Assembly (NCBI GenBank): GCA_016783545.1
Contig: JADHWJ010000002.1
Location: 1,617-65,616 of the forward strand
Origin: Candidatus Aenigmatarchaeota archaeon
GTDB lineage: Archaea; Aenigmatarchaeota; Aenigmatarchaeia; QMZP01
DNA length: 64,000 nt
Reading direction: 5' to 3'
Shown here: positions 1,912 through 34,515 of the stretch, piece after piece
Layout of the letters: the number at the start of each line of letters is the position of its first letter
Numbering within the stretch: the stretch's first letter is position 1
Made by a program: the position numbers and the translations under genes
Notes under the pieces: generated by a model
The model's database searches: none
What the model was told of the DNA's origin: nothing
Seen by the model: the letters and a program-made list of their open reading frames with translations, nothing else

Positions 1912-2163
1912 ATGTCTAAAGTAGAAAACCTAGGTGTAATTGCGGAGCCTGGCTCTGCGAATAAAGACAAGAAGTCTGGATGGAGAACATTCAAACCAAA
2001 GATTAATGAAAAATGCACAAACTGTGGTTTTTGTGTTTCGTTTTGCCCAGAAGCTGGAATAACTATTGAAGGTGACAGGGCAAAGATAAATTATGATTAT
2101 TGCAAAGGCTGTATGATATGTGTTGATGTGTGCCCTTTGAAAGCAATAGAGGAGGAGAAATGA
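1912..2163 (+). CDS. porD: Pyruvate/2-oxoacid:ferredoxin oxidoreductase delta subunit (2x[4Fe-4S])
   Basis: WRTFKP, CxxCxxCxxxCP twice, DYCKGC. Confidence 0.95.
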   Translation: MSKVENLGVIAEPGSANKDKKSGWRTFKPKINEKCTNCGFCVSFCPEAGITIEGDRAKINYDYCKGCMICVDVCPLKAIEEEK

Positions 2164-4859
2164 AAGTGCTATCAGGTTCCCAGGCAGTTGCAGAGGCAGT
2201 AAAACTTTGTAAACCAGAGGTTGTTCCAGTTTATCCTATCACTCCAGCCACACCAATGGCAGAATACCTCTCACAGATGGTTGCTGATGGTGATTTGAAT
2301 GCTGAATTCATAACAGTGGAATCAGAACATTCTGCAATGTCAGCATGCATAGGCGCATCCTCAACAGGTGTAAGAACATTTACAGCAACAGCTTCACAAG
2401 GTCTTTGTGTAACACCGGATACTGATATAATCATGGAAAATCCAGGAATAAAAAACATAAAAGACTTTGTGGATAAAAATCTTGAGAAGTATAAAATAAA
2501 CCAAGGAAAATGGGAAATTGGAACTGGAACTGGCAAAATTTTGACATGGAATGGTCAGGAATTTGAATATGATAAAATAACCCATGTTCAGAGAATAAAA
2601 CCTCCAAAAAAGTTAATTAAAATTATAACGAGATCTGGTTCTGAAGTTACAGTTACACCAGATCATAAAATATTAATAGATAATGTAAATAAACCAGAAT
2701 GGATTGAAGCAAAAATGTTAAATGGCAATGAATATCTATATGCGCCAAGAAAAATAAAATTAAAAAATATAAAAAGACCAAAAATAATAGAATTTCTACC
2801 AGAAAATATGACTGTTATACTTGATTCCGAAATAAAAACAAGATTAGTTAGAAAAATAAAAAATATTTATGGGAGTTTAAATAAAGGTTCTAAAAAACTT
2901 GAAATACCAAAACATCATATTCTTTCTAACTATTCTATCTCTTTGGAAACAATAAAAAAATTATGTGATTCTGATATTATCAAGTGGAAAGAAATATATG
3001 AAAAAACAAATATATTCTCTCTTCACGGAGGGACAATTAAAACAAATTTTAAGGAACTAAATAAAGATTTCATGTACTTATTAGGTCTGATGTTTTCTGA
3101 TGGATGTTTCAAAGGAGATATTAAAAGTAAAAATAGGTTTGTATTCACTAATAAAAATAAAAAGTTATTGAAAATATTCTCAAATGGTTATAAAAAGTTA
3201 TTTCCGAACAAACCTGTTGGAAAGGTTTTACTTAAAAGAGGTGTAACACAGTTAATGGGTTCAAATTTTATATTTTCAATACTTGGCAAGAAAATAACTT
3301 TAAAGAAAATTTTCAGTTACGATGAAGAGCTAATAAAATCATTTCTGAAAGGTTATTTTGATGGTGATGGGAGTTGCAGAATTCAGAGCAAAAAAAGAAT
3401 AACAATATTCTTACATTGTAAAGATGATAGCAAAGTATCAGATCTGAAAAAGTTATTGTTAAGACTTGGTATTCTTAGTCATGTATATAAAAGAGATAAT
3501 ATTATTAGAGGTCTGTATATTTGTGGTTTGGGTGATACAATAAAATTTATAAGCACCATAGGAAGTAATCATCCTCAGAAACGAGAAAGATTCGTTATAG
3601 CTAAAAAATTCTTATTAAAATCTAAGCCAAGACCGCAATGGTCAGGTAAAACAGCTTTAATATGCAGAGATTTATTGATTGCTACAATAAAGAAAAGCTC
3701 ATATTCAATGAATGAAATTGATCCTGAGAATTATATTAATAAAACAAAATTTAGAAATACTCGAATAGGAAAGGAAAAATTAAGGGAAATTTTGAAAAGA
3801 ATGGAAGAAAGAAATTTTGAAAAAGATGAAACTTTCAGCTTACTGAAAAAGATGTCCTCAGATTCATTCTTTCTGGATCCCATAAAAAAAATAAAAAAAA
3901 TAAAGAGCCCACATAAATATGTTTACGATTTAACTGTTGAGAAGAATAGATCATTTGTTCCAAATGCTGCTTTTGTTGTTAGCAATTGCTTAATGCATGA
4001 AATGCTTTTTGTTGCATCAGGAACAAGATTGCCTATTGTTATGGCAATTGCAAACAGGGCACTGTCTGCTCCTTTGAATATTTGGAACGATCAGCAGGAT
4101 AGTTTTGCTCAAAGGGATTCTGGTTGGATACAGCTCTATGTTGAGAATGCACAAGAAGCTTTTGATACAATTATAATGGCATATAGGATAGCAGAGGAGA
4201 TGAAAACACCTGCAATGGTCTGCATGGATGGTTATGTTATCTCTCATACATATGAGAATGTTGAACTTCTTAGCCAGTCTGATGTTGATAGATTCCTTCC
4301 CAAATTCAAGCCAGAGATATTCCTTAACCCAAGAAAACCAATGACAATTGGCCCGGTAGGAACCCCTGAATATTATATGGAATTTAAAAAGCAGCAGCAG
4401 GATGCTCTGAAACAATCACTTGAGACAATTAAAAGAGTCAGCAATGAGTTTGCTTCAATGGTAAAAAGAAAGTATGGCAACGGCCTGATTGAAAAGATTG
4501 GTATGGAAGGAAAGAAGCATGCATTGATAACAATAGGTTCTCTGACAGGCACAGCAAGAGCTTTACAAGAGCAAGATGATTTTGGTATAATAAGAATTAA
4601 GGCATTGAGGCCTTTCCCTCTAAAACAGATAATAGAGGCCTGCAAAGACCTTGAGTCAGTGGGTGTTGTAGAAAAAGATATTTCTTTGGGGGCAAACGGT
4701 GTCCTATATGATGAAATACGTTCTGCTTTATATGGAAAATCCAAAGCAAAAGTCTCTGGTTATATAGCGGGATTGGGCGGAAAGGATATCACTCTCAGTG
4801 ATCTGAAAGGCATTTTGAAGAGTGTTAGGGCTGGAAAAGATAGTGTGGAGTGGATTTAA
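2160..4859 (+). CDS. porA: Pyruvate/2-oxoacid:ferredoxin oxidoreductase alpha subunit, intein-interrupted
   Basis: VYPITP, VESEHSAMSA, TATASQGL|intein|CLMHE, ANRALSAPLNIWNDQ. Confidence 0.93.
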   Translation: MKVLSGSQAVAEAVKLCKPEVVPVYPITPATPMAEYLSQMVADGDLNAEFITVESEHSAMSACIGASSTGVRTFTATASQGLCVTPDTDIIMENPGIKNIKDFVDKNLEKYKINQGKWEIGTGTGKILTWNGQEFEYDKITHVQRIKPPKKLIKIITRSGSEVTVTPDHKILIDNVNKPEWIEAKMLNGNEYLYAPRKIKLKNIKRPKIIEFLPENMTVILDSEIKTRLVRKIKNIYGSLNKGSKKLEIPKHHILSNYSISLETIKKLCDSDIIKWKEIYEKTNIFSLHGGTIKTNFKELNKDFMYLLGLMFSDGCFKGDIKSKNRFVFTNKNKKLLKIFSNGYKKLFPNKPVGKVLLKRGVTQLMGSNFIFSILGKKITLKKIFSYDEELIKSFLKGYFDGDGSCRIQSKKRITIFLHCKDDSKVSDLKKLLLRLGILSHVYKRDNIIRGLYICGLGDTIKFISTIGSNHPQKRERFVIAKKFLLKSKPRPQWSGKTALICRDLLIATIKKSSYSMNEIDPENYINKTKFRNTRIGKEKLREILKRMEERNFEKDETFSLLKKMSSDSFFLDPIKKIKKIKSPHKYVYDLTVEKNRSFVPNAAFVVSNCLMHEMLFVASGTRLPIVMAIANRALSAPLNIWNDQQDSFAQRDSGWIQLYVENAQEAFDTIIMAYRIAEEMKTPAMVCMDGYVISHTYENVELLSQSDVDRFLPKFKPEIFLNPRKPMTIGPVGTPEYYMEFKKQQQDALKQSLETIKRVSNEFASMVKRKYGNGLIEKIGMEGKKHALITIGSLTGTARALQEQDDFGIIRIKALRPFPLKQIIEACKDLESVGVVEKDISLGANGVLYDEIRSALYGKSKAKVSGYIAGLGGKDITLSDLKGILKSVRAGKDSVEWI
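2406..3986 (+). mobile_element. Intein with LAGLIDADG homing endonuclease (527 aa) in PorA
   Basis: Starts CVTPDT; block B VTVTPDHKIL; endonuclease motifs YLLGLMFSDG and FLKGYFDGDG; ends VYDLTV..FVVSN with +1 Cys. Confidence 0.93.
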
Positions 4860-8549: not shown

Positions 8550-8566
8550 TCCCGTTAAGATGACAA
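8550..8566 (-). repeat. Conserved site copy TTGTCATCTTAACGGGA
   Basis: Preceded on the minus strand by a 9-bp hairpin (8570-8604) and followed by GAAAAAACTTTATA. Confidence 0.9.
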
Positions 8567-20789: not shown

Positions 20790-21722
20790 ATGAAAACCGA
20801 AACAAACAGAGTTTGTAAATTAATAGCAGGTTTTGATATGGAATACGACATGCTGATAAGGAAGAAGTATTTGAAGGTTCAGGATAGGCTAGGCATGAGA
20901 ATAGGTATTCATGGCGGAACAAAGAAAATGCCTGTTCCAAGGACGGTTCAAGATGTTCTCAAAATTCTAAGAGAACTCTACAATATTGGCTTAAAGGCAT
21001 ACATATTACCAAAGGAGTTTTTTTCTAAGATAAAGGTTACAACAGATCTGTACACAACATATTACGGTGAGCTTCTAAAAATAAAGGATATAGCGAATAA
21101 ATATGACATTGAACTTAGCATTGAATATCCAAATCTTCCAGATCCTCCTGATGAAACACTGAAAATATTCATAACAATTGCATCTGTAATGGGATGCAGA
21201 ATGTTTATAGTAAGACCTGATTTCTATCCAATGGTTCCACAGGACCAGGCACTAAGGCTTACCGTCTATAAAATAAATGAGATTGTTTCTGAAGTTAATG
21301 CAAAAGCAAAAATCGGAATGGAAACAGCAGGGAAGATAGATGAATTAGGAAGCCTGGAGGACATTGTTGAAATAGCAAAAAGAACAAGGGAAACCAACAT
21401 TGTTATTAATTGGGGAAATATACATGCAAGGGGTTCTGGATCTTTGAGAACAACTGAAGATTTCGATAAGGTAGTAAAGAAGGTTTCAGAAGGTATAGGC
21501 GTAGGGTATTTCCGTGAAGCATTTTTTATATTCGGCGGAGTTTCATATGGACCATCTGGTCTTGTAAGGAAAATTCCTATAAAGAATTGTGACATGAAAC
21601 TAGAGGATCTGATAAAACAGATAATGACATATGGTATGAGAGGGACGCTTATTTTGGATGATCCTGGAAAGGAGCAATTTACACTCCAGATTCTGGATAG
21701 GCTTGCGGATACAGTAAGATAA
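20790..21722 (+). CDS. Endonuclease IV-like TIM-barrel protein with degenerate metal ligands
   Basis: ETAGKIDELGSLEDI, INWGNIHARG, GGVSYGPSG; true start may be 20838 or 20850. Confidence 0.7.
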   Translation: MKTETNRVCKLIAGFDMEYDMLIRKKYLKVQDRLGMRIGIHGGTKKMPVPRTVQDVLKILRELYNIGLKAYILPKEFFSKIKVTTDLYTTYYGELLKIKDIANKYDIELSIEYPNLPDPPDETLKIFITIASVMGCRMFIVRPDFYPMVPQDQALRLTVYKINEIVSEVNAKAKIGMETAGKIDELGSLEDIVEIAKRTRETNIVINWGNIHARGSGSLRTTEDFDKVVKKVSEGIGVGYFREAFFIFGGVSYGPSGLVRKIPIKNCDMKLEDLIKQIMTYGMRGTLILDDPGKEQFTLQILDRLADTVR

Positions 21723-22111
21723 TGAGTATTCTTAAACAATAATTTTTCTTTTTAAGTAACCAATACCAATTCAAGAGATATCAAAGCTCTTTTTGGCGTA
21801 AAACCCATTGAGCTTGTCCAACACATTTCACCAACTCATCAAGAGCTGGTTTAGAGAAGCTGTTTTCTTTCTTAGTTATCAGACTATCCTCTGTAAAGGA
21901 ACAATAGTCTTTTCTAGGTCTTCGGGAGCACTGTGTCCATTGGACTATGGCGGTAGAACATGGTAATGCCAATACGCAACCGTCCCATTGCAGCCATGCG
22001 CATAATTGGGAAATCGGTGGTGGCGGATTCTCTTTTCGCACCTCCCTTCTTGATGAAACCACTGACGCTTCGAGCAGTGCTATCCGAACTTTTTTTAGAA
22101 AGAGTTGGGTC

Positions 22112-22324
22112 ATGAATTACGTTGAGTGGAAGGTCAGAAACGCCCCAAAGAGGGAGAAGTGGTGGCAGAAGCTGCTTGCTATCATTATTCTTTGCTTGGG
22201 AGTAGCTCTCCTGGGCTGGCTTTTTGTTGATGCCTGGGAGAAGGAAGAGAGGTTCAGGGACGCCAGGCTGAAAGCGTTCCAAATAGAAAATGGAGTTGAC
22301 ATCAACGAAGTCAGCTCCAGATAG
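22112..22324 (+). CDS. Orphan single-pass membrane protein (70 aa)
   Basis: KWWQKLLAIIILCLGVALLGWLF TM segment; upstream start at 21947 also possible. Confidence 0.65.
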   Translation: MNYVEWKVRNAPKREKWWQKLLAIIILCLGVALLGWLFVDAWEKEERFRDARLKAFQIENGVDINEVSSR

Positions 22325-22408
22325 TATTGACACGACCCTCCCAACATAGAGAACAGTGTCAGTGCCAGAGATATGGGTTTGCCACAAGCTTACTCATACT
22401 CTGTTATA

Positions 22409-22425
22409 TTGTCATCTTAAAGGGA
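22409..22425 (+). repeat. Conserved site copy TTGTCATCTTAAAGGGA
   Basis: Directly upstream of GAAAAGGCTTATAAA promoter and ACTATAG-AACA-CTATAGT operator-like palindrome. Confidence 0.9.
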
Positions 22426-22462
22426 GAAAAGGCTTATAAACTATAGAACACTATAGTATACT

Positions 22463-22687
22463 ATGGAAACAACAACAATACAAATAACTGAGAATTTGCA
22501 AAATGAACTCAAATCCAGAAAAATATCAGAAAATGAAAGCTATGAAGAGGTTATATGGGATATGATAGAGGATACTATGGAACTTTCTGAACAAACCAAA
22601 AAAGATATAAGGGAAGCTGAAGAGGATATCAAAGCCGGTAGAGTTCATACACTTGAAGAGATTGAAAAGAGAATCAAAGATGATTGA
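22463..22687 (+). CDS. Antitoxin (DUF7557/VapB3-like), partner of RelE
   Basis: TTIQIT..ESYEEVIWDM..EEDIKAGRVHTLEEI; overlaps the toxin gene. Confidence 0.8.
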   Translation: METTTIQITENLQNELKSRKISENESYEEVIWDMIEDTMELSEQTKKDIREAEEDIKAGRVHTLEEIEKRIKDD

Positions 22688-22943
22688 AATGTATAATGTT
22701 ATTTTCTCTAAAAAAGCAGGAAAAGAGTTTGATAAATTGGAAAAAATAATTCAGAAAAGATTAGTTTCTGTAATCAAGAGGATAAGGATAAGACCTGAGG
22801 CTTTTGTTAGAAAGCTTGTCGGAGGACCTTATTATAGACTGAGAGTTGGTGAATACAGAGTAATTTTGGATATCAGAAAAGGAGAATTGATTATTCTGGT
22901 TATTTCTATTGGTCATAGAAGAAACATCTATAAGAGCCTTTAA
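22680..22943 (+). CDS. RelE/ParE family toxin
   Basis: YNVIFSKKAGKEF..YRLRVGEYRVI..IGHRRNIY. Confidence 0.92.
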   Translation: MIEMYNVIFSKKAGKEFDKLEKIIQKRLVSVIKRIRIRPEAFVRKLVGGPYYRLRVGEYRVILDIRKGELIILVISIGHRRNIYKSL

Positions 22944-22954
22944 TTTACTTAAAT

Positions 22955-22971
22955 TTGTCATTTTAGAGGGA
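22955..22971 (+). repeat. Conserved site copy TTGTCATTTTAGAGGGA
   Basis: 11 bp after the relE stop; followed by GAAAAAGCTTTATAAA and GTAAACA-AATA-TGTTTAC palindrome. Confidence 0.9.
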
Positions 22972-23017
22972 GAAAAAGCTTTATAAATATGTAAACAAAT
23001 ATGTTTACAGTGATTAT

Positions 23018-23254
23018 ATGGTTCAAGTTCAATTAAGAGTGCCAGATAATATGGTTAAGGATATTGATGGATGGGTAGAAGAAGGAAGATTCAAAAACAG
23101 AAGCGATGCTGTTAAAACAATTATATCTCTATATGAGGATAAGATGAAAACAATGGAATTCCTAAAAATGCTTGTAAATAGGAGCAAAGAAGCTGAAAAT
23201 AACCCTGAAAAATTGATACCCCTGGATGATCTGGATGTTAAAAGTTCTAATTAA
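23018..23254 (+). CDS. Ribbon-helix-helix (CopG/Arc/MetJ) antitoxin
   Basis: VQVQLRVP..IDGWVEEGRFKNRSDAVK. Confidence 0.88.
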   Translation: MVQVQLRVPDNMVKDIDGWVEEGRFKNRSDAVKTIISLYEDKMKTMEFLKMLVNRSKEAENNPEKLIPLDDLDVKSSN

Positions 23255-23308
23255 TAATAAAGCGAATTTTTACAGATATGCCTTGATCGGCATTATAGGA
23301 GGCATTGG

Positions 23309-23569
23309 ATGTTTAAGATACTTCTACACACTCTAAGTTTAAAATCTCTTGAAAAGCTGGATAAAGAAGTTCAGTTTCAAATAAGGAAGAAATTAAGAGA
23401 ACTTGAGGAATTTCCTGAACAAAGAGGTAAGCATTTAAGATATACACAATTCTGGAGTCTGAGAATAGGTGATTATAGAGCTATATATGAAATTAAAAAT
23501 AAAGAAGTTATTGTTCTTTTCATAGGTCATAGAGATAGAGTATATGATGATTTCTCAAAGATATTTTAG
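23309..23569 (+). CDS. RelE/ParE family toxin
   Basis: WSLRIGDYRAIY..FIGHRDRVY. Confidence 0.92.
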   Translation: MFKILLHTLSLKSLEKLDKEVQFQIRKKLRELEEFPEQRGKHLRYTQFWSLRIGDYRAIYEIKNKEVIVLFIGHRDRVYDDFSKIF

Positions 23570-23714
23570 ACAGACGATTTACTTAAATTTGTTTAAGCCT
23601 TTTAGAGGCAAATGAAACCTCCATTTAAACCAATAAGATCAAATGGAGAACCTACTGCCTTCTTTGGTTAAATCTTTTCGCAAAAGCCTTAAGTTCACCC
23701 AAAAACCCTTAAAA

Positions 23715-23731
23715 TTGTAATCTTAACGGGA
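23715..23731 (+). repeat. Conserved site copy TTGTAATCTTAACGGGA
   Basis: Followed by GAAAAAGCTTTATATA; same sequence at 52002. Confidence 0.9.
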
Positions 23732-24160
23732 GAAAAAGCTTTATATACCACTAATACAATTAATCTTATCTGTCACTATGTAATAGTGATAATTAAAGGG
23801 AGAACATGGGAGTAACTCATGTTCTATGAAACTTAAATAGAGTTGCAATGCAACCGAAAGTTTCATAAATAGTAATTACAAATAAAAGAGATCAGGTGTC
23901 AAATTTGTCCCGCAAGGGTGAATTTGGCAAACTCTCCCATCTTGGAACTGCCAGTTGGCAGTTCCTCTTGGACCATTGGTTGTAAAAGATCAATGGTTTT
24001 ATCCTTACAAACACAATTGAACTGGCTTACTATCTTCGGATATACCAGTTCAAACCGAGTGAATACACGGATTAAAGGGCCAAATTTTTCTAGTTCTGAG
24101 AATCTTCAATGATTTTCTTCAAGGTCTTTTGTCTGTCTACTCGGTAATTACATAATTGTT

Positions 24161-24500
24161 AGGGACAGGAAGCGGGGTCGGTAAAACCATCCCCGATTAC
24201 TATACATCGCAACGGTAGGAGTCGCGAGTCCGCCCGCAGTACCACGCCTAATGGCTGGTAATGGCCGGCATAATTCCTACCCGGGGTCGGAACCACCCCG
24301 CTTCCTCCCTTCGGCTTCTAAGGTATACAGCCCCCTTTAGAAGAATACACCGAAGGATTCAAACGGTTCAGGGGCAATGTGGTGCACCATAATATTACAT
24401 AGGAGTATATAGGTGCACAAGGACGCCGAAGGGAGTCCCGAAAATTTGTCGTACCTCACTATGACATATGGTGAGGCACTCGCGTCCTCTAAGAGGACAC
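24161..24500 (+). ncRNA. Candidate structured RNA / long leader
   Basis: AGGAAGCGGGGT pairs with ACCCCGCTTCCT and encloses GGTAGGA/TCCTACC; four more hairpins follow. Confidence 0.55.
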
Positions 24501-24546
24501 TGATGTTTCGCTGATGGAGTCTTTTTCACTGAAAGGAGTGAAAGAG

Positions 24547-25086
24547 ATGGAAGAAGAAAGACGGTCAGAAGAAAGAGCAGACGCATACGAAGAGTTGGGT
24601 GAGGTTGCTGTGCCCACACCCGAGACCGCGCCGGAACCCACGGGTGGGATCACGATCAGGTTCACTCGCGGGAACGTAGTTTCCGCATTGATCGGAGCCC
24701 TGATTTGTTTCGGGGTGATGTACCTGATCTCCGAGGGAAACGACCGGCGACAGGTCGACGAGATCACCGAGCTGCGCGAGGTCGGCCTGAAGCTGCACAC
24801 CCTGGCCCAGAAGGCGTTCGACAAGTGCCGGGATATCGAGGGCTACGAGCGGGCCACGTTGAAGGTCCCGGCGATTTTGGCAAAGGGGCAGAAGGTCGAG
24901 ACCGCACCGAAACCGAAGCCCCGACAGGTCGAGCCGGAGCCGCAGCCTGAACCGGTCTACGACGACCCGGAGCCCGAGGTCGTGGAGCCTGAGCCGGTCA
25001 CGACCAACGACGACCCTCGGACCGAGGATCCCCCACCCATCGCGAACGATGAGTTTGAGGATGGGGGCGACGAAGGCGGCGAGTAG
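24547..25086 (+). CDS. Orphan membrane-anchored protein with Pro/Glu-rich acidic tail
   Basis: AAAGGAG RBS; TM VVSALIGALICFGVMYLI; ELREVGLK motif; ends DEGGE. Confidence 0.8.
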   Translation: MEEERRSEERADAYEELGEVAVPTPETAPEPTGGITIRFTRGNVVSALIGALICFGVMYLISEGNDRRQVDEITELREVGLKLHTLAQKAFDKCRDIEGYERATLKVPAILAKGQKVETAPKPKPRQVEPEPQPEPVYDDPEPEVVEPEPVTTNDDPRTEDPPPIANDEFEDGGDEGGE

Positions 25087-25096
25087 TTTTCGCTGC

Positions 25097-25151
25097 AACG
25101 GGAGTCCTATAGGCCTCGGGACTTCCTTAACAAAATAAAGGGAGGCCTACT
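25097..25151 (+). repeat. 55-bp intergenic direct repeat, copy 1
   Basis: AACGGGAGTCCTATAGGCCTCGGGACTTCCTTAACAAAATAAAGGGAGGCCTACT identical at 26162-26216. Confidence 0.95.
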
Positions 25152-25190
25152 GATGGATGTTGACGTTCGACGGTAAGAAAGGGACACAAC

Positions 25191-26153
25191 ATGAGGACGA
25201 GAGCCCTCACGGCCGCGCTCATTTTCACGGCCGCAACCATAGGACTCGCTGGGAGCGCCCGCGAGCATTACAAGGTCGGCGTCCGGCACATGATTCAGGG
25301 GTCTGATGCATATAACCCCCGTGCCGCGATGGAGGCCTTCAGCAAGGTATGTGAAGCCGATCCCACGTACGGGAACTCGATTGGCTTTGCGAAGCCTGTC
25401 AAGGAGCAGCTGTTCAACGCTGCTATGGCGTACTTCTCCGAAGTTACGGAGTCAGAGATGACTCTGGAGAAGAAGTTGGAAGAGCTGACTGCGATTAGGA
25501 TTGCATTGTTCATGTGTAAGTCAGATCGAGGTCAGTTCTCAGAAGTTGACCAAAGTGGTCTGAACGCGAAGATCATGGCGGTCAACGCGGTAGCCCAACG
25601 GGTGCAGGAGGTCATTAGGGCGCAATCCCGACAGGCCGAGCCGGAGAAGTTCGACGCAGCCGCGACGATGCAAGAGGTCGCGACACGTTACGATACGGCC
25701 AAGCGAGAGCTGGCCTTCGCGTCTCAGCTCGTGGGAGAGGTCCTTGAACAGGACCCGGACCATGAGGAAGCGAATCGGGCCAGGGAGCTCCTTGAGATTC
25801 GCCTCATACCAGTGGATGAGTTCAATGAGCTCAATGCGACCGTCTCGTTGCTGAAACAGACGGTTAACGAGGCCGCGGACAAGATTCGCGAGGCCCGGCA
25901 GGATCACGCGCGCCGGGTCCTTTACTCGCGCGAGCTGCGCGAGGTCGGGCTGAAGTTTCACGAGCTCGCCGAGATCAGTTACAACAAGTGGCTGAAGTTG
26001 GCCAAGCCCGGAAGCGAGGCTCGGACGCTGAAGCTTCCGGAGGTGCTGGAATACGAGCCGTTCATCTCGGAGCAGGTCCTTGATCTGGTTCACGACGATG
26101 AGCAGCACGAAGGCGACGAGCACGAAGCCGACGACGACGAAGGCGGTGAGTAA
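25191..26153 (+). CDS. Orphan secreted helical (TPR-like) protein, paralog of 24547-25086
   Basis: Signal peptide MRTRALTAALIFTAA; ELREVGLKFHELA; ends DEGGE. Confidence 0.8.
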   Translation: MRTRALTAALIFTAATIGLAGSAREHYKVGVRHMIQGSDAYNPRAAMEAFSKVCEADPTYGNSIGFAKPVKEQLFNAAMAYFSEVTESEMTLEKKLEELTAIRIALFMCKSDRGQFSEVDQSGLNAKIMAVNAVAQRVQEVIRAQSRQAEPEKFDAAATMQEVATRYDTAKRELAFASQLVGEVLEQDPDHEEANRARELLEIRLIPVDEFNELNATVSLLKQTVNEAADKIREARQDHARRVLYSRELREVGLKFHELAEISYNKWLKLAKPGSEARTLKLPEVLEYEPFISEQVLDLVHDDEQHEGDEHEADDDEGGE

Positions 26154-26161
26154 CTAGCCGT

Positions 26162-26216
26162 AACGGGAGTCCTATAGGCCTCGGGACTTCCTTAACAAAA
26201 TAAAGGGAGGCCTACT
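26162..26216 (+). repeat. 55-bp intergenic direct repeat, copy 2
   Basis: Identical to 25097-25151. Confidence 0.95.
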
Positions 26217-26259
26217 TTGGACGTGAAGTTGGGACGTTTTCAGAAGAAGGAGTAGTACC

Positions 26260-26754
26260 ATGAGAGCGATCACGATCGCCCTTATCACCGTTGCCGGACT
26301 GTCGTTCATCGGGTCGGTCGAGGCAGCGGAGATCGATTTGGACGCCGCATTGGCGGAAGTGACGGCCGCGCCGGATACGACGGCCGCGCCGGTTCGGAGA
26401 AGTACCAGTGCCCAGAGGCCGGTGGTTCGGAGAAGCGCCACCAGGGTCGCATACCCGGCCGCTCAGGCGCATGCTGATGCCGCAGTCACGGACATTGAGT
26501 CCAGTATCACTGAGGCCGAGGCACACGGGCGTGTTCGCCGCGCCCAGGCTGATAGGGTAGTTTCCGCAGCAGAAGAGGCCGAGGCCATGGCAGATGCGGC
26601 GGCGGCTCGGGCCCGTAGGGCGCAGGCCGAGGCACGCTTCGAGGGTGCCCGGAGCGAATTCCATAGTGGTTGCAGCGATGCGGCTGCCACACAGTATCGG
26701 ACACATCTCCGGCGCGTGACCCGTGCCAGCGGAGGTCGGGTGCCTGTTCGGTAA
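26260..26754 (+). CDS. Orphan secreted Ala/Arg-rich coiled-coil protein
   Basis: GAAGGAG RBS; signal peptide MRAITIALITVAGLSFIGSVEA; internal 27-30 nt duplication (TTAAPVRRST/AQRPVVRRSA). Confidence 0.75.
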   Translation: MRAITIALITVAGLSFIGSVEAAEIDLDAALAEVTAAPDTTAAPVRRSTSAQRPVVRRSATRVAYPAAQAHADAAVTDIESSITEAEAHGRVRRAQADRVVSAAEEAEAMADAAAARARRAQAEARFEGARSEFHSGCSDAAATQYRTHLRRVTRASGGRVPVR

Positions 26755-26765
26755 TACCCGATCTC

Positions 26766-26809
26766 AACCTCCCCCTGGTGGCATACAACCAGCTTGCCAG
26801 GGGGAGGTT
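26766..26809 (+). terminator. 13-bp perfect hairpin (terminator or processing site)
   Basis: AACCTCCCCCTGG..CCAGGGGGAGGTT. Confidence 0.55.
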
Positions 26810-26879
26810 AGCGTCCTTAAAAAGCTGGTTTTTCACCAGACCAGTCAAAACAACGAGACCTTCTTGAAAGGAGGTTGTC

Positions 26880-27239
26880 ATGTGGAGAATAAGTACAGGC
26901 GAGCTGGCACTTTTGATCATCGGCAGCTTTGTTGCCGGTGCAGTTGTTGCCGGCTTTCTTAGTCGGTTGGTGCGGGGTCGAGGCAAGCCGTCTCCGGCAG
27001 CTCAGCCAGTGCCAGTGCCGAGCGAGTCGGAAGTCGTTCTGACGAAAAGGGAGCTGACGGCTCTGGTGAAGAGCCAGGTTGTTAGTGCTCTCAAGGAGAA
27101 GGAGCTGGGAGCACAGCCCGAGCCGATAGAGCCGCCGGAGTTGACCAAACTGTCGGTAGAAGAAGTGGTTGATGCAATACCCGAATCAATCACCGCCGAG
27201 AAGGAGGAGGAAGTACCCGAGAAAGGAGAAGACTCATGA
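26880..27239 (+). CDS. Orphan single-pass membrane protein
   Basis: AAAGGAGG RBS; TM LALLIIGSFVAGAVVAGFL. Confidence 0.75.
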   Translation: MWRISTGELALLIIGSFVAGAVVAGFLSRLVRGRGKPSPAAQPVPVPSESEVVLTKRELTALVKSQVVSALKEKELGAQPEPIEPPELTKLSVEEVVDAIPESITAEKEEEVPEKGEDS

Positions 27240-27826
27240 GGAATCTGAGTTTCGCCGCCATCATAGCGGCTCTCCTTCTTGTAGGTTGTGAGAGGGAGAA
27301 GAGTTCCAGCAGCCGAGGGCGCACAACCAGGCGCGCCGCCGATGGGGAGAAGTTGACCCTTCGGGACCTGCAGGCGGATCCTAACGGGTTCGCTATCGTG
27401 GACCCAGACCGCCGGCGAATGAAGCTCCCCATGAGCTTCAGAATCGTCAGAGCCATGGACGGCGGGTCCGGTGAGGAAGTTATGCTGGTCGCTTATCTTG
27501 GGGGTGAGGAGAGCCCCAGCGATGAGCAGGACGGGGTTGAGGAAGATGTACCGCCGAACTATGTTCTCGTCCGGGTTCGGCGGGCGTGTGGTGTAGATCT
27601 CCTTGGCGGGGAGACGAACGCCAACTGCCGCCTCTTTGTGAAGAAGTTCGAGCGCAAAGGGACGGTGGAGATGGGCGATCACGGTGACGAATTGTATGTA
27701 ATCACGGTCGCTCGCGGGGACATCTACTACAACTACGACGTCATGTCCCTGAGCGGCGATAACATGACGGATACGGTTGAGCGAGACCGGCCGCCGGATC
27801 CGGTGCGGCACCACAGCTACCCGTAA
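27236..27826 (+). CDS. Orphan putative lipoprotein
   Basis: MRNLSFAAIIAALLLVG-C lipobox; ATGA overlap with the previous gene. Confidence 0.75.
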   Translation: MRNLSFAAIIAALLLVGCEREKSSSSRGRTTRRAADGEKLTLRDLQADPNGFAIVDPDRRRMKLPMSFRIVRAMDGGSGEEVMLVAYLGGEESPSDEQDGVEEDVPPNYVLVRVRRACGVDLLGGETNANCRLFVKKFERKGTVEMGDHGDELYVITVARGDIYYNYDVMSLSGDNMTDTVERDRPPDPVRHHSYP

Positions 27827-27989
27827 GGGAAATGAATACCAGGTCCCTCCCAAGGGGTGGAGGGGCCTGGTGGCCTCTTGAGAGAAAGGAGATGAAAATC
27901 ATGTTGTGACGCCTTTCACAAAAACAACACAATGTTGAGGGTACGGCAACAGTACCAGAAAGGGAGTGGCGCCCCACAGTTGCTTTATG

Positions 27990-28025
27990 ATGTCTTTTTA
28001 ACGGTATATACCATTAACTTGACTG
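27990..28025. repeat. Two degenerate conserved sites head-to-head (27990-28006 +, 28009-28025 -) around palindrome GGTATATACC
   Basis: ATGTCTTTTTAACGGTA and CAGTCAAGTTAATGGTA, each preceded by a hairpin. Confidence 0.7.
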
Positions 28026-28060
28026 AGTAAAGGGGAAGTTGTTCCCCTTGTAATTACTCC

Positions 28061-28993
28061 TTATTTGATTTGATTCAGCTCTTCGTGAAAGCTTCTCCCA
28101 GCAGGGACCATGTCGTCTGTAACCCTGGGGTACTTCTCCCTTTTCTGTAGCAGACGGTTGGTGGCCTCTTCGAGTCGGTGTTTGAGCCCTTGCATGGGCT
28201 CATAAGAGGGCCTGGGCCAGATCAGGATACCACCATCCTTGAGAGAGTATGTGAGTCCGAAGGGCTCAAGGAGTATGGTTAGTATGGCACCAACAGACCC
28301 TTCGAGGCATTCCACCTGCTCGATCTTGATATGGTCCTCCCTATTGACCATCAGGTCGAAGGTCACCTTAAACCCCCCAATATCAGCTAGACCACTCACC
28401 AACTCTTCGAGTGTGATTGAAAGAGGGCTGGGCTGGAAGGTTATTTCCTTATCGAGCTTCTTCAAGAGATCGATCTTCCAACGCTGCTCTGAACCAAACT
28501 CTTTTTCCAGGTCCTCGTCCACCTTCATCTGGTAGAGTTTGTTGCAGATCTTAGTCCTCTCTTCAGCTGCTCGGAGTTGGGTAAAGAGCCGTGCCTCTCT
28601 CTTATTACGGGGCTCTTCCACAGCACTCTTCAGACTAGCTTTGGCTGTTTTGAGCTGTTCCTTAAGGCTCGCTTCAGTTGTCTGATACCCTTCGACCCTT
28701 TTGCGGAGATCCTCGAGCTCCTTTTGGGCTTGGTCCCTTTCCCCCTCTGCGATTCGGAGCATCTTGATGAAAGGGCCGTTGTGCTTGGCCTTTTCGAGTT
28801 TCTGGTTCTCTGCTGAGAGTCTCTTTACCTCGGTTCGAAGCTCAGCGAGCTCAGGTTCGTACTTGGCTTTCAGCTCTTCTCGAACCCGGTTTTCACCTTC
28901 CTTTACGAGCCGACTGACCTCCTCTTGGAGACCTAGATCACCCGCAAAGGCCAGTGCTGTGAAGCATAGTGATACAGCGATTCTTCTGTACAT
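28061..28993 (-). CDS. Secreted coiled-coil protein with STN/secretin-N-like domain
   Basis: Signal peptide MYRRIAVSLCFTALAFAG; TLEELV..ILTILLEPFGLTYSLKDGGILI. Confidence 0.75.
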   Translation of the reverse strand: MYRRIAVSLCFTALAFAGDLGLQEEVSRLVKEGENRVREELKAKYEPELAELRTEVKRLSAENQKLEKAKHNGPFIKMLRIAEGERDQAQKELEDLRKRVEGYQTTEASLKEQLKTAKASLKSAVEEPRNKREARLFTQLRAAEERTKICNKLYQMKVDEDLEKEFGSEQRWKIDLLKKLDKEITFQPSPLSITLEELVSGLADIGGFKVTFDLMVNREDHIKIEQVECLEGSVGAILTILLEPFGLTYSLKDGGILIWPRPSYEPMQGLKHRLEEATNRLLQKREKYPRVTDDMVPAGRSFHEELNQIK

Positions 28994-30369: not shown

Positions 30370-33300
30370 TTATGATGACTGAGGGATGGTATCAGGTTCC
30401 TGAGGAACTGTATCTGGTTCTTGGGGAACGGTATCCGGTTCTTGTGGGCTACCATCAGGTTCTTGGTCACCACCACCATCGCTCATAGTACTCCAACTAA
30501 CAGGACACGCAAGTCCACCGCAGCTGAATGTATTAAAGTCACACTCAGGAGTCTCTCCCCTTGGGCAGTCAACATCCTTTCCTTTAAAACTTGAAGCAAG
30601 TCTTGTCCAGAAGCTCTTCTCTGAACAGCATTTTATTCCACCAAATTCTAACTTAGTGCTCTTTGTATCAATTCTTTGGTATGTATAGTTTGCATTCCCT
30701 CTTAACACAAACGTCTTTGAAGGCACTTCTAGGTCTGTAAGGCCTTGTTTAAAGTAACAAGATGCAACATATACACCTTTCAGCTGGCTGAAAGCAGCTT
30801 TGTCCCATACCAGCTTATTACCATCTTTTCTTGGAGCAGGATAACAGTCATTTTCGTGGCTAAAGCCAGGAACATTTTCAAGGAATTCTCCAGGGAACTC
30901 CAGTTCTATGAATTTCATATCAGTAATGTTTCCTTTGTTTCCCTGTGCTCCGGCAAGATTTATATCCACACTGAAAGGCATTCCCTCTGTAATCGGCTGT
31001 TCCTGAGTGTCTATGTTAAGCCTTACAGGGGCGTTTGTAAGTGTTGCCGCCTTCTTTGCTACTGATACTATACCTTCCCTTGTCCTTCTATCCCATTCAT
31101 CCCTGCCCATGAACTCAATCTCAAAGCTTGAGTCTATCTTGTACTTGTACATCACTACGGCTGTTAATGGTATGAATTTCTCCCTTAGGTTAGTGGATAA
31201 TGTGGTTGCGCAATCTATCATATCTGTTGCAGGGAAGAATACCTCTGTTGAAGCTAATTTGTTTAGATTTCTGTCAGGTGTTTGCAGTGGCTGTTCACAA
31301 TATCCAGGAGTGCCTCTCCTGAAGTCGTCATCACCTATATTTGTATTATGACATGCAATTTCAAGTTCAGTGTCGTCTACAAATCCAAGCTGGCCTATAT
31401 TGATATAGGTTTCATCCCCAGGCGCCCAGCTCGGGTCGTAATGAAGCGGAGAGCTAATCCTTATAGATACCTCTTCTGCGTCGAACGCGCCCTTATTATC
31501 AAGCTTGAGAGAGACAGTGTATGGCCTGCAGACATAGATAAGGCTAGTTCTAAAGCTGGTTATTTCAATACCATATGCTCCTGCCAAGCCTGTGTCAGAG
31601 TCTGTTGCGTATGAACCATTCATCATCTGTTGGGCATAACCAACAGGGTTTGTCAATAGTTTCCATCCAGTTCCGAACATGCCACCAAAGCCTGTGAACA
31701 GCTCTGCTAGTGGTTTGAATACGTCAGAGAAGCCTGTATAAACAGTTGGGAACCAGTCTCCAAGTATTGCTCCGCCAACTTCCTGGGTGCCTGGACCGAA
31801 TGCATATATTACTGTAGCTGCGCCTAGCATAAGCATACCAACTTCTGCTCTGTTCTCTGTGGGCGCGAAGAACCCAGCCACAAACGTGACAAACCAGAAA
31901 TACAGGAAGAATCCCTTAAGTAAGCCGGTCAGCTCCCATCCAACCCCTCCAATCATCTGGAAAAGCCCTCCCATACCGATATCTCCGCTAAATACCATCA
32001 ACAGAGCAAGGACTATGAAAATTGGAGCGCCCATTGGTATTTTTGAAATAGCAAAAAGCAAGCCAATTCCAACAAATACAATTGCAATGGCCCAGCCTCC
32101 AAGTGCTCCAGAACCTATTAATGCAATTCCCATTAATAATGCAAAAACGAATTTCATTGGTATTTCGTAGAGTGACAGTCTTTCATCTACATCTGCTGTT
32201 GGCGCTCCGCCAGCGCCTCTGTTCGCATGCGGTGGCGCAATAAAGAATGCCCATGCTATAAGCGCAAGAACCCATGAATCAAAAATACTAAGGAACGCAA
32301 ATGGTATGAATGTACATCCCAGAATGAACCTGTATGTGGAATCTATAAACTGTGAAGGATTATATCTATCCCCTAAATCATATCCATGTGAATAGCTAAG
32401 ATAACCAACAAAAAGAGTTATTATTCCGAAAAGGTTGAAGAAAGGAATTTCACTTTTTACAAAAAGACCCATGAACCCTCCGCCCATGAAGCCTGCATAC
32501 ATTCCTATTATTGCTGCTGACTTGAAGAAACTCTTTGTGAAGGCCATGCTGTAGTGGTGCCTTCCTGGTCTGTCATGGTGCATGTCTGATACAGCTCTGT
32601 GTAAATTTCCACCATACCCTCTGAATGACCTGCCTATCCCTCTGCCCCAATGACCTACACGTCCGAATCCACCATGGCGTATATCGAGTCCGGTCAAATC
32701 CGCATCTCGTATGGCTCTATCATCTTCAGGTTGGTCTCCCATTGGCCAATAGTCTGCTGGGTTAGGGAACATGTAATAGGCTGCCCAAGAAAAGAATCCA
32801 ACTATAAACCAGAAGTTTCCGGTCATTGATGACACAATCAGGCCGATTGCTACTAATGCAATGGTGGGCATATAGTCCCTGATGCTCCAGTGGGAGTAGG
32901 CGTCTCTCCAATGGAGTTCGCCTCTTTCCTTTTTCTTTTCCTTTAATGTAAATGTTATCTTGTAAACATGGTTTTTACAGTCAACATCAACATTATATTC
33001 TTCTGGATCAGGATCATGGGTATTACATAAACATCTCACATCATATACATTAGCTACGTTTGTTAGGAATGTAAAGAATCTTACCTTTTTCTTTGCAGGC
33101 ACATCTGCCAGTTTAAATGTTGAATTGGTTGGTTGAGGATCACAATGAACACTTACATTTTCTGCTTCCAAATCACTGGCTTTATTATCAATATAAACTA
33201 CAATCTTACAGCCTGGGCCAGCGGGGCCAGCAGGAGGTGGACCACCAGGAGGACCACCAGGAGGACCAGCAGGAGGACCACCAGGACCAGCAGGAGGTGG

Positions 33301-34515
33301 AGCACCAGGAGGACCAGCAGGAGGACCACCAGGACCAGCAGGAGGTGGAGCACCAGGAGGACCACCAGGACCAGCAGGAGGTGGAGCACCAGGAGGACCA
33401 GCAGGAGGACCACCAGGACCAGCAGGAGGACCACCAGCAGGAGCAGGCGCTGCAGCAGCCGGGCCTCCAGTATAATGAGCAACTACAGAATAGTTCTGGT
33501 CCATTTTTATATCTATTTCAGAATCACCGGTGTACAGATCAACATCAGGTATTGTATGTGGTGGTACTCCTGGTTGCCGGGCTGCAAGACCATCTCTGAC
33601 ACCAGTTATTTTATTTGGAACTGCTGGTGGAGCTGGCATACCTGGACCAAATCTATTCTCTAATATATCACCAGGCCACAAATTAACACCGTTTACTGTC
33701 CAATGGTCAAAAGTATAACCCGGATTAGGTCTTTGATGAATAGTTACAACAGAATCCTTTGCAGGTTCTGATTTTCCGTGCAGATTAACCCAACCAGCTT
33801 TTTCAGGTGCTTCATTAACAGCAAGAATAACTTTACCAGGTGGAGGTACAGGAGCCGGAGCAGGTGCTGGAGGAGGCGGAGCAGGAGCGGGTGGAGGAGG
33901 TTGCAATTGAAAATATGCTACGATGGTAGTATCTGCATTTAAATTAACGATTCTGGCCGGGTTGACGGATCCATCTTCCCATTTTTGAAAGACATAAAGG
34001 TTTCCACCAATAGCAACATTGTTATTGACAATGATATTTTTTACACCAGCCTTTAGTTTACCCTTATATGTGGTTGTTTTAGATGAACCATCTAGTGTAA
34101 AAGGAACACCTTTCATCGGCAAAGAATCAACAACCAATGTAAATTTATTTCCACCACCAGCACAACTACCAGTTGCTGTTATACTAATTTTTTTTGTTGC
34201 TAAAACTTTAGCGTTACTATCAATAACTTCAATAGTGATAACATGCTCACCTGGTACTATACCTGTTTTTGCATGGATATTTAATCCATTAGTGAAAAGA
34301 CCAGTATTATTTATGAGTTGTGCTGAATCATATATTCCATCTGTTCTTTCTGGTGGTTCAACCGACCCAAACCATGCAATAAGTTTTGGAAGAGATTTTA
34401 TTCTGATATCTATTAATTCATTTTGTGGTCCCCTGACATTGAATCCTAAAGTACTAGGTTTGCAAATTTTTACATTTGTTTTAGATACAGTGCTAATTTC
34501 TGCTAAACTAGGCAA
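30370..34515 (-). CDS. Large surface/membrane protein with Ig-like domains, Pro/Gly repeats and multi-pass core
   Basis: 1381-aa ORF, GGTGA RBS before TTG; InlB-B-repeat-like GYTFDHWTVNG; PGGPP repeats; many TM segments; LKLDNKGAFDA CARDB-like segment. Confidence 0.8.
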   Translation of the reverse strand: MPSLAEISTVSKTNVKICKPSTLGFNVRGPQNELIDIRIKSLPKLIAWFGSVEPPERTDGIYDSAQLINNTGLFTNGLNIHAKTGIVPGEHVITIEVIDSNAKVLATKKISITATGSCAGGGNKFTLVVDSLPMKGVPFTLDGSSKTTTYKGKLKAGVKNIIVNNNVAIGGNLYVFQKWEDGSVNPARIVNLNADTTIVAYFQLQPPPPAPAPPPPAPAPAPVPPPGKVILAVNEAPEKAGWVNLHGKSEPAKDSVVTIHQRPNPGYTFDHWTVNGVNLWPGDILENRFGPGMPAPPAVPNKITGVRDGLAARQPGVPPHTIPDVDLYTGDSEIDIKMDQNYSVVAHYTGGPAAAAPAPAGGPPAGPGGPPAGPPGAPPPAGPGGPPGAPPPAGPGGPPAGPPGAPPPAGPGGPPAGPPGGPPGGPPPAGPAGPGCKIVVYIDNKASDLEAENVSVHCDPQPTNSTFKLADVPAKKKVRFFTFLTNVANVYDVRCLCNTHDPDPEEYNVDVDCKNHVYKITFTLKEKKKERGELHWRDAYSHWSIRDYMPTIALVAIGLIVSSMTGNFWFIVGFFSWAAYYMFPNPADYWPMGDQPEDDRAIRDADLTGLDIRHGGFGRVGHWGRGIGRSFRGYGGNLHRAVSDMHHDRPGRHHYSMAFTKSFFKSAAIIGMYAGFMGGGFMGLFVKSEIPFFNLFGIITLFVGYLSYSHGYDLGDRYNPSQFIDSTYRFILGCTFIPFAFLSIFDSWVLALIAWAFFIAPPHANRGAGGAPTADVDERLSLYEIPMKFVFALLMGIALIGSGALGGWAIAIVFVGIGLLFAISKIPMGAPIFIVLALLMVFSGDIGMGGLFQMIGGVGWELTGLLKGFFLYFWFVTFVAGFFAPTENRAEVGMLMLGAATVIYAFGPGTQEVGGAILGDWFPTVYTGFSDVFKPLAELFTGFGGMFGTGWKLLTNPVGYAQQMMNGSYATDSDTGLAGAYGIEITSFRTSLIYVCRPYTVSLKLDNKGAFDAEEVSIRISSPLHYDPSWAPGDETYINIGQLGFVDDTELEIACHNTNIGDDDFRRGTPGYCEQPLQTPDRNLNKLASTEVFFPATDMIDCATTLSTNLREKFIPLTAVVMYKYKIDSSFEIEFMGRDEWDRRTREGIVSVAKKAATLTNAPVRLNIDTQEQPITEGMPFSVDINLAGAQGNKGNITDMKFIELEFPGEFLENVPGFSHENDCYPAPRKDGNKLVWDKAAFSQLKGVYVASCYFKQGLTDLEVPSKTFVLRGNANYTYQRIDTKSTKLEFGGIKCCSEKSFWTRLASSFKGKDVDCPRGETPECDFNTFSCGGLACPVSWSTMSDGGGDQEPDGSPQEPDTVPQEPDTVPQEPDTIPQSS
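33215..33465 (-). repeat. Low-complexity tandem repeat encoding (P/A)GGPP
   Basis: Iterated CCAGCAGGAGGACCACCAGGA units. Confidence 0.9.

Follow-up and report, generated by a model that had tools for sequence, protein, structure and literature searches.

Within a 64,000-nucleotide (nt) stretch of archaeal DNA (hereafter the window), we found that a block of 55 nt stands twice, letter for letter the same, in the gaps that separate the first three genes of a G+C-rich, apparently foreign operon of five genes (A to E). The layout of the block leads us to read it as a candidate cis-acting intercistronic RNA element, which would exert translational control and coupling in the operon; we put this reading forward tentatively, as plausible rather than probable. 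The two copies are placed as follows.

25097 to 25151, plus strand: repeat copy 1, between gene A (stop codon 25084-25086) and gene B (start 25191)
26162 to 26216, plus strand: repeat copy 2, between gene B (stop codon 26151-26153) and gene C (start 26260)

The copies agree at 55 of 55 positions, and at 58 of 60 when the comparison is opened to 25092-25151 and 26157-26216. They lie in direct orientation, 1065 nt apart, copy 1 starting 13 nt past the stop codon of A and copy 2 starting 11 nt past that of B. The spacers between stop and block differ (TTTTCGCTGCAAC versus CTAGCCGTAAC), as do the stop codons themselves (TAG versus TAA) and the frame of the block relative to the upstream gene; since the block stands in different frames after A and B, it is non-coding. 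As the original prediction had stated, the flanking genes have diverged, even though both upstream genes end, again as stated, in DEGGE and a stop. Only the C-terminal domain is common to the A and B proteins (ELREVGLK...TLK.P..L...DEGGE), with a BLASTP identity of 46% over 46 amino acids (aa) and 31% over about 112 aa. Across the 46 best-aligned residues the codons are 61% identical, third positions are equal in 25 of 44, and a synonymous codon difference is seen at 6 of the 21 identical residues; the coding DNA as such can be aligned only with many insertions and deletions (indels). Past the 3′ end of the block, similarity falls at once to about 65%, with indels, and persists in weak form where the B and C signal peptides are encoded. 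At a neutral difference of about 30%, a run of 55 identical bases has a probability of about 3e-9. The A/B duplication is old, its synonymous change saturating, and the 55-nt identity is no leftover of a simple duplication, because the coding flanks are far more diverged than the block: the equal identity in neighboring coding sequence that a recent duplication would bring is clearly absent. The block is therefore constrained, homogenized, or both.

The repeat is not a product of assembly. A 7673-nt contig from another sample matches window positions 21243-28915 with one mismatch (27810), and a second contig, from another sample, spans copy 1; an assembly artefact or chimera is ruled out by three independent assemblies, and the junctions between the island that carries the operon and its AT-rich flanks are real. 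A further contig (L007, assembled by Logan from SRR12042682) ends within copy 1 at ...GGGACTTCC; this break arises because the 55-nt repeat exceeds k=31, so that contig-level data cannot link across the repeats. The original prediction had looked to additional copies of the element, but none came to light: there is none in the rest of the 886-kb genome of which the window is a part (18 contigs, 36% G+C; the window lies on contig C12) by BLAST and sub-motif searches, none at the DNA level in 40 relatives, and none in metagenome, genome and viral contig collections by exact 24- and 26-mers. A loose two-box pattern returned only three unrelated tandem repeats from viral contigs.

The favored reading draws on the potential RNA structures of the block, on a Shine-Dalgarno (SD) sequence near its 3′ end and on two short open reading frames (mini-ORFs) that start just beyond it.

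25100 to 25126, plus strand: helix S1 of copy 1, GGGAGUCCU (25100-25108) pairing with GGGACUUCC (25118-25126), 9 base pairs (bp), two of them G.U
26165-26173 and 26183-26191, plus strand: arms of helix S1 of copy 2, same pairing
25110 to 25149, plus strand: helix S2 of copy 1, UAGGCCUC (25110-25117) pairing with GAGGCCUA (25142-25149), 8 bp
26175-26182 and 26207-26214, plus strand: arms of helix S2 of copy 2, same pairing
25122 to 25128 (copy 1) and 26187-26193 (copy 2), plus strand: anti-SD CUUCCUU, 7 bp with the AAGGGAG of the SD
25138 to 25145 (copy 1) and 26203-26210 (copy 2), plus strand: SD-like AAGGGAGG, 7 nt from ATG 25153 and 6 nt from TTG 26217, respectively
25153 to 25176, plus strand: mini-ORF 1 (MDVDVRR*), with its stop 14 nt before the start of gene B and overlapping the AAAGGGA site of B
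26217 to 26255, plus strand: mini-ORF 2 (TTG start, M/L-DVKLGRFQKKE*), with its stop 4 nt before the start of gene C

When the block is numbered from 1 to 55, S1 joins G4-U12 to G22-C30 and S2 joins U14-C21 to G46-A53. The 5′ arm of S2, UAGGCCUC, is essentially the entire S1 loop and its 3′ arm overlaps the SD, and C26-U32 (CUUCCUU) is complementary to A42-G48 (AAGGGAG). Both competing stems quoted in the original prediction do exist, S1 (GGGAGUCCU/GGGACUUCC) with 9 bp and S2 (UAGGCCUC/GAGGCCUA) with 8 bp, and taken as nested alternatives they are near-isoenergetic, at -13.5 kcal/mol for S1 and -13.8 kcal/mol for S2 extended by CCUU/AAGG. In the full intergenic context, extended S2 with the SD buried is the minimum-energy fold of both copies. 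Since S1 contains two G.U pairs, it forms only in plus-strand RNA. The two helices are also compatible with each other as an H-type pseudoknot, in which loop 1 has 1-2 nt, loop 2 almost none, and loop 3 is the 15-nt A-rich UUAACAAAAUAAAGG. A pair of H-type-compatible helices this strong was found in 0 of 3000 dinucleotide-preserving shuffles by a statistic devised after the helices had been seen; two helices of at least 8 bp were found in 3%.

Each block carries the sequence GGGAG[G/U]CCUA in two copies, 40 nt apart, and the remainder of the 886 kb lacks it. The 5′ copy (GGGAGUCCU) can be read as a putative SD mimic, or "anti-anti-SD," and the twofold occurrence is then expected because SD mimic and SD would share pairing partners. 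All the sequence elements of an SD-sequestering RNA are thus present in the block and at its edge, namely an SD with a start codon, an anti-SD complementary to that SD, and a segment that could compete for the anti-SD and so free the SD. None of the covariance models of Rfam 15 matched at gathering thresholds in the window, nor at E<=5 in 23700-26900. The proposal of an RNA switch or processing element under strong constraint, made in the original prediction, stands in part: the block is strongly constrained or homogenized, and its layout fits a ribosome-binding-site switch.

At its 3′ end (AAAGGGAGGCCTACT) the block carries a strong ribosome-binding site, AAAGGGAGG. No SD-type word is commoner in the genome at large than AAAGGGAG, which was counted 59 times where 30 were expected and which at 24 of the 59 sites precedes a start codon by 3-10 nt; this suggests that the minority of host genes that use an SD prefer the GGGAG type. 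The mini-ORFs placed behind this site have 7 and 12 codons, and the last codons of mini-ORF 2 contain the AAGGAG site of gene C. Between their first seven codons there are nine differences, four at first positions, five at third positions and none at second positions, and the codon pairs GAT/GAC, GTT/GTG and CGG/CGT differ by synonymous changes only, a pattern that may be taken as a weak coding signature.

From these features a mechanism can be proposed. In the OFF state, the anti-SD CUUCCUU and the loop segment UAGGCCUC would pair with the SD region through S2 or extended S2; in the ON state, the SD mimic GGGAGUCCU on the 5′ side would capture the anti-SD through S1, freeing the SD. If S1 and S2 formed together, the resulting compact H-type pseudoknot would also bury the SD. 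Translation of the mini-ORF would deliver ribosomes to the start of B or C by termination-reinitiation, or would open the structure around that start; such delivery to the next start is proposed because each mini-ORF stops inside the following gene's ribosome-binding site or directly behind it. A protein, a metabolite, temperature or upstream ribosomes may act as the trigger, and the module may work in the archaeal host or have worked only in a high-G+C donor. As for the near-total identity of the copies, nearly every base would be held in one of three interdependent pairings or in the SD-to-start spacing; tandem copies would also homogenize each other, and gene conversion probably helps. We infer the folding in vivo and the translation of the mini-ORFs from the sequence. 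The logic of coupling recurs elsewhere in the operon, in the leader of gene A, which has a hidden site and a 3-codon mini-ORF, and in the ATGA overlap of genes D and E.

Several known riboregulators resemble the block. In the preQ1-I/II and SAM-II/V riboswitches, the rpsO and L20 operator pseudoknots and RNA thermometers, a short hairpin likewise has a loop that pairs with an SD-containing 3′ segment, and SD-sequestering riboregulators of this kind share with the block an A-rich third loop, near-isoenergetic alternatives and a position just before a start codon. The block differs from them in lacking an Rfam match, in its much longer helices (9 and 8 bp), in the near absence of loops 1 and 2, which leaves little room for a ligand pocket, in standing between cistrons rather than in a 5′ leader and in a control that would act on a mini-ORF rather than a main gene; neither covariation nor a known ligand or protein goes with it. 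A review is available (PMC5972666) of how short ORFs upstream of a gene or in its leader couple translation within operons by termination-reinitiation. The likeness to such systems lies in mini-ORFs with a strong SD whose stops fall 4-14 nt before the next start, in the UGAUG of the gene A leader and in the AUGA at D/E; here, in contrast, the mini-ORFs are predicted, their peptides are unconserved and the downstream genes have SDs of their own.

A number of points weigh against intercistronic control and coupling. The codon signal rests on 9 differences, with a p of about 0.03 before correction for the choice of frame, and the mini-ORF peptides are unconserved beyond MDV..R. Genes B and C carry their own ribosome-binding sites, so that coupling is not strictly needed, and the archaeal host uses SD sites in a minority of its genes. 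As only two copies exist and both are identical, they lend no covariation or phylogenetic support; moreover, functional RNA usually tolerates variation in loops, and full identity also points to gene conversion. Besides the late choice of the shuffle statistic, the block does not stand out when folded without pseudoknots (nested-fold z-scores of -0.1 to -0.9), and the pseudoknot is tight, its loop 1 of 1-2 nt having to cross an 8-bp helix.

Gene conversion brings us to an alternative that we consider unlikely, namely that concerted evolution alone, by gene conversion or unequal exchange between the tandem paralogues, has kept the copies alike and that the block has no function beyond that of an ordinary ribosome-binding region. 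Identity without exception and an abrupt edge at either end are what a conversion tract would give, the copies are tandem, direct and 1065 nt apart, and no variation was seen across three samples. The patchy similarity of the coding sequences (23 of 24 nt in ELREVGLK, 17 of 18 nt in DEGGE and stop) suggests a mosaic. However, conversion needs prior high similarity at the tract ends, which means that the spacer was already diverging more slowly and implies constraint. In addition, the edges of the tract coincide with landmarks, 11-13 nt past the stop and exactly before the start codon, and the helix content is far above that of shuffles.

An improbable explanation, in our view, is that the block acts at the level of DNA, either as a recombination site bounding an excisable gene B, in the manner of an integron cassette or of a cluster of attC sites lacking integron integrases (CALIN), or as a protein-binding array. 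For an array, GGGAGKCCTA occurs twice, 40 bp apart, and AGGCCT and CCTATAGG are palindromes. For recombination, the direct repeats sit just past stop codons and delimit a 1065-bp unit, the identity starts exactly at an AAC triplet, the single-stranded DNA fold of copy 1 has an attC-like R box, 5-nt unpaired spacer and stem, and recombination sites homogenize themselves. The setting is also suggestive: attC clusters have been reported in Aenigmatarchaeota of the order QMZP01 (Ghaly et al. 2022, PMC9668308), the FttA protein encoded in the window is 62% identical to that of a metagenome-assembled genome (MAG) whose accession has the prefix QMZP01, and just upstream there are toxin-antitoxin modules, which integrons typically carry. 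Compared with the integron attC and CALIN of that study, the block is thus alike in being a near-identical direct repeat after successive ORFs, an imperfect palindrome beginning with AAC, in a host phylum that has attC clusters, next to foreign, bacterial-looking cargo and nearby toxin-antitoxin modules.

The sequence of the block itself speaks against an attC. Nine experimentally used archaeal attCs (PMC9668308 Data S9) share AACAA..T..A.C.GA and end in GTTRRRY; at the positions invariant in their alignment (A8 A9 T15 A18 C20 G22 A23) the block has G G C T G C C, so that it matches the archaeal invariants only at AAC, and it contains no GTT. The R″/L″ conserved positions are missing, as is an R′ GTTRRRY in the conserved part. 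A loose attC grammar, which recovers 8 of the 9 known archaeal attCs, gives copy 1 a weak score and misses copy 2, which is off attC geometry. In copy 1 the core sites would be CTGCAAC ... GTTGACG, with AAC/GTT and one more pair, 2 of the 4 outer positions being complementary; in copy 2 they would be CCGTAAC ... GTTGGGA, at another spacing and not found by the grammar. The putative R′ regions accordingly differ both in spacing (9 versus 13 nt) and in sequence. Genome-wide there is no canonical attC cluster, only 9 scattered single signature hits, and tyrosine recombinase genes (PF00589) lie on contigs C11 and C7, not on C12, with none in the island and hence no integrase adjacent to the block. 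Both flanks are homologous, the ORFs on either side being paralogous, which indicates tandem duplication rather than independent cassettes, and the G.U pairs of S1 favor RNA. An integron attC is therefore rejected: by the invariants and by the grammar, used with positive controls, we found neither its core sites nor its L″/L′ box positions, and no nearby integrase or CALIN, and the recombination reading as a whole is weak. The suggested shuffling point, at which different N-terminal domains would be joined to one common C terminus, does not suit the geometry either: the repeats lie past the stop codons, downstream of the common C-terminal domain and in direct orientation, and an exchange between them would remove the whole of gene B, its C-terminal domain included.

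We give similarly little weight to an element of mRNA processing or stability, in which S1/S2 would shield the upstream 3′ end, or mark a cut in the A-rich stretch, and so give A, B and C different stabilities. The fixed distance of 11-13 nt after the stop in both copies, the stable structure without a U-tract and the single-stranded, A-rich UUAACAAAAUAAA between the helices would all suit such an element, but it leaves unexplained why SD, spacer and start-codon position fall within the conserved block, and likewise the SD-mimic/anti-SD layout.

Two bolder proposals are very improbable: either the blocks would be the ends of a mobile sub-cassette, with gene B excised or duplicated by some recombinase, which would also account for their absolute identity, or they would represent a new class of ligand- or protein-responsive pseudoknot riboregulator that gates the coupling. 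Least credence of all goes to internal promoters, from which B and C would be transcribed separately in the host, an A/T-rich segment (AAAATAAA or CCTATAGG) acting as a TATA-like box. The starts of B and C follow AAAATAAA at a distance of about 45-55 nt, and CTTTAT on the minus strand equals the first six bases of the host CTTTATAA/CTTTATATA boxes; yet there is no plus-strand TTTATA-type box and no purine-rich transcription factor B recognition element (BRE) beside either candidate, the host AAAAAGC-TTTATA arrangement, which is clear in this window, is absent from the block, and a sigma-70 scan was empty in both blocks.

The remaining classes can be dismissed briefly. Bacterial repetitive extragenic palindromes and interspersed mosaic elements (REP/BIME) are similarly short structured repeats placed right after stop codons within operons; a REP or miniature inverted-repeat transposable element (MITE) is rejected for having two copies only in 886 kb, no dispersed family, sub-motifs nowhere else and homologous flanks, and the block further differs in its functional-looking SD and start and in the absence of a target-site duplication, none being seen at the block flanks on reading. 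A stimulator of -1 frameshifting or readthrough is excluded by the differing spacers, stop codons and frames, and no slippery heptamer was seen on reading both spacers. For an intrinsic terminator, the scan lists no site in either block and no T-run follows S1 or S2. A diversity-generating retroelement was discarded, as numerous indels separate the coding repeats, their mismatches involve all four bases, and the reverse transcriptase (RT) genes are on C16 and C17. These RT genes (PF00078, 73-91 bits), at C16:43697-44338(-) and C17:2349-2993(+), both have AAGGGATGCCTAT followed by near-identical sequence.

The region upstream of gene A contains the following leader.

24420 to 24550, plus strand: structured leader of gene A, fold z = -3.7

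Here a GUCCUC/GAGGAC hairpin hides a GAGGA site ahead of a mini-ORF of 3 codons (AUG UUU CGC UGA), the stop of which overlaps ATG 24514 as UGAUG, and a 12-bp hairpin downstream encloses the site of ATG 24547. A degenerate copy of the repeat had been placed at 24430-24480, but only the 8-mer GGGAGTCC is common to it and the block, and when aligned the two are about 46% identical. The gene A leader is better described as a putative functional analogue of the block with no clear homology to it. Farther upstream, at 23715-23790, a BRE/TATA-like box and the palindrome GTCACT..AGTGA accompany a copy of a conserved 17-mer, an arrangement resembling the promoter regions at 8566(-) and 52002(+). Nothing but a 7-codon ORF follows before a run of about 750 nt, poor in ORFs and rich in hairpins, that extends to gene A. 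Transcription of the operon may begin from a host-type promoter at this place and pass through a long structured leader.

This 17-mer, TTGTCAT[CT]TTAA[AC]GGGAG, has 10 copies in the genome at <=3 mismatches, six of them in the window. Its sites were noted at 8566(-), 13649(-), 22409, 22955, 23715, 39518, 39569(-) and 52002 of the window and elsewhere at C4:19151(-), C7:23984(-), C13:19100 and C13:21850. Most copies stand directly upstream of an AAAAAGC-TTTATA (BRE/TATA-like) box, and in several the box is followed, 24-40 nt on, by the start codon of an AbrB-like gene or of a ParE/RelE-type toxin-antitoxin module; the 17-mer looks promoter-associated, serving leaderless mRNAs, and not only like a box at an island's end. 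The resemblance that had been seen between AACGGGAG and TAAAGGGAG in the block and the right half of this conserved site is at the level of chance or of the SD, AA[AC]GGGAG being present 59 times against 30 expected (24 before starts) and AACGGGAG alone occurring at the expected frequency genome-wide. Because the right half of the 17-mer is the common SD purine word of the genome, the look-alikes in the block are no evidence of a relationship.

The genes of the operon are these.

24514 to 25086, plus strand: gene A, 190 aa if started at ATG 24514; the alternative ATG 24547, behind a GGAG site of its own, would give 179 aa
25191 to 26153, plus strand: gene B, 320 aa, with a signal peptide and an all-helical prediction, ending in DEGGE
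26260 to 26754, plus strand: gene C, 164 aa, Ala-rich, with a signal peptide resembling that of B and without the A/B C-terminal domain
26880-27239, plus strand: gene D, with E the remainder of the G+C-rich operon
27236-27826, plus strand: gene E, with the lipobox LVGC, overlapping D by ATGA

Through this ATGA overlap, D and E are coupled. The product of gene A, an ORFan, has a single transmembrane segment and an acidic, Pro/Glu-rich tail ending in DEGGE; gene B, which has its C-terminal domain in common with A, is a complete ORFan. None of the five island proteins has a meaningful match in Pfam, PHROGs or NCBIfam. For gene B, neither a word-indexed search of 5.8 billion clusters nor an exhaustive phmmer search of 1.84 billion representatives found a homologue, and A and E matched only themselves, in other assemblies of the same population. 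An AlphaFold model of the B protein, made without an alignment, is all-helical with a pLDDT (predicted local distance difference test) of 57, too poor for a fold search. After gene C, a 13-bp G+C-rich hairpin at 26776-26812, CCUCCCCCUGG pairing with CCAGGGGGAGG, is followed by neither a start codon nor a U-tract and is possibly an operon-internal stabilizer or attenuator. Antisense ORFs at 25107-25289(-) and 26172-26441(-) terminate inside the repeat copies with the common tail RPPFILLRKSRGL; their codon bias mirrors that of B and C, and they are most likely not genes.

The five genes, all on the plus strand, make up an island of 58-60% G+C at 24100-27900, and toxin-antitoxin modules lie directly upstream of it. 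Codon-position G+C in A, B and E follows the pattern of real genes, with 0.37-0.43 at second positions (GC2) and 0.72-0.75 at third positions (GC3), against a GC3 of about 0.30 in host genes, and a GGAG-type ribosome-binding site precedes 5 of 5 island genes against only about 8% of host genes. Since its G+C, codon-position G+C and ribosome-binding-site usage are unlike those of the host, the island is, by composition, recently acquired foreign DNA. The host genome is, judging from its genes, Aenigmatarchaeota-like (DPANN): the window contains archaeal housekeeping genes for the FttA/aCPSF1 termination factor, a class I aminoacyl-tRNA synthetase, HerA and DUF63, and the nearest matches of FttA are MAGs of Candidatus Aenigmatarchaeota, at 62-66% identity. 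The locus is present in a run from a Black Sea water-column metagenome (PMC8067304). Elsewhere in the window, a pyruvate:ferredoxin oxidoreductase subunit gene (2130-4859) is split by an intein with a LAGLIDADG homing endonuclease domain, and a tandem array at 33191-33490, with a 12-nt period, about 17 or more copies, 64% G+C and a strong skew of A over T, lies inside a minus-strand ORF (30370-34515, 1381 aa) that has a weak match to the InlB B-repeat (Flg_new_2).

As an orphan candidate without comparative support, the block is of modest value unless confirmed by expression or probing. If the favored reading is true, the block would unite SD mimic, anti-SD, SD and mini-ORF in one small, self-sufficient module that sets the translation ratio of successive cistrons, and would offer a simple design for the tuning of synthetic operons. 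The module would have traveled with a bacterial-looking operon into a DPANN archaeon that initiates mostly without SD-led initiation, and would thus serve as a small test of whether an operon's own translational control survives horizontal transfer from one domain to another.

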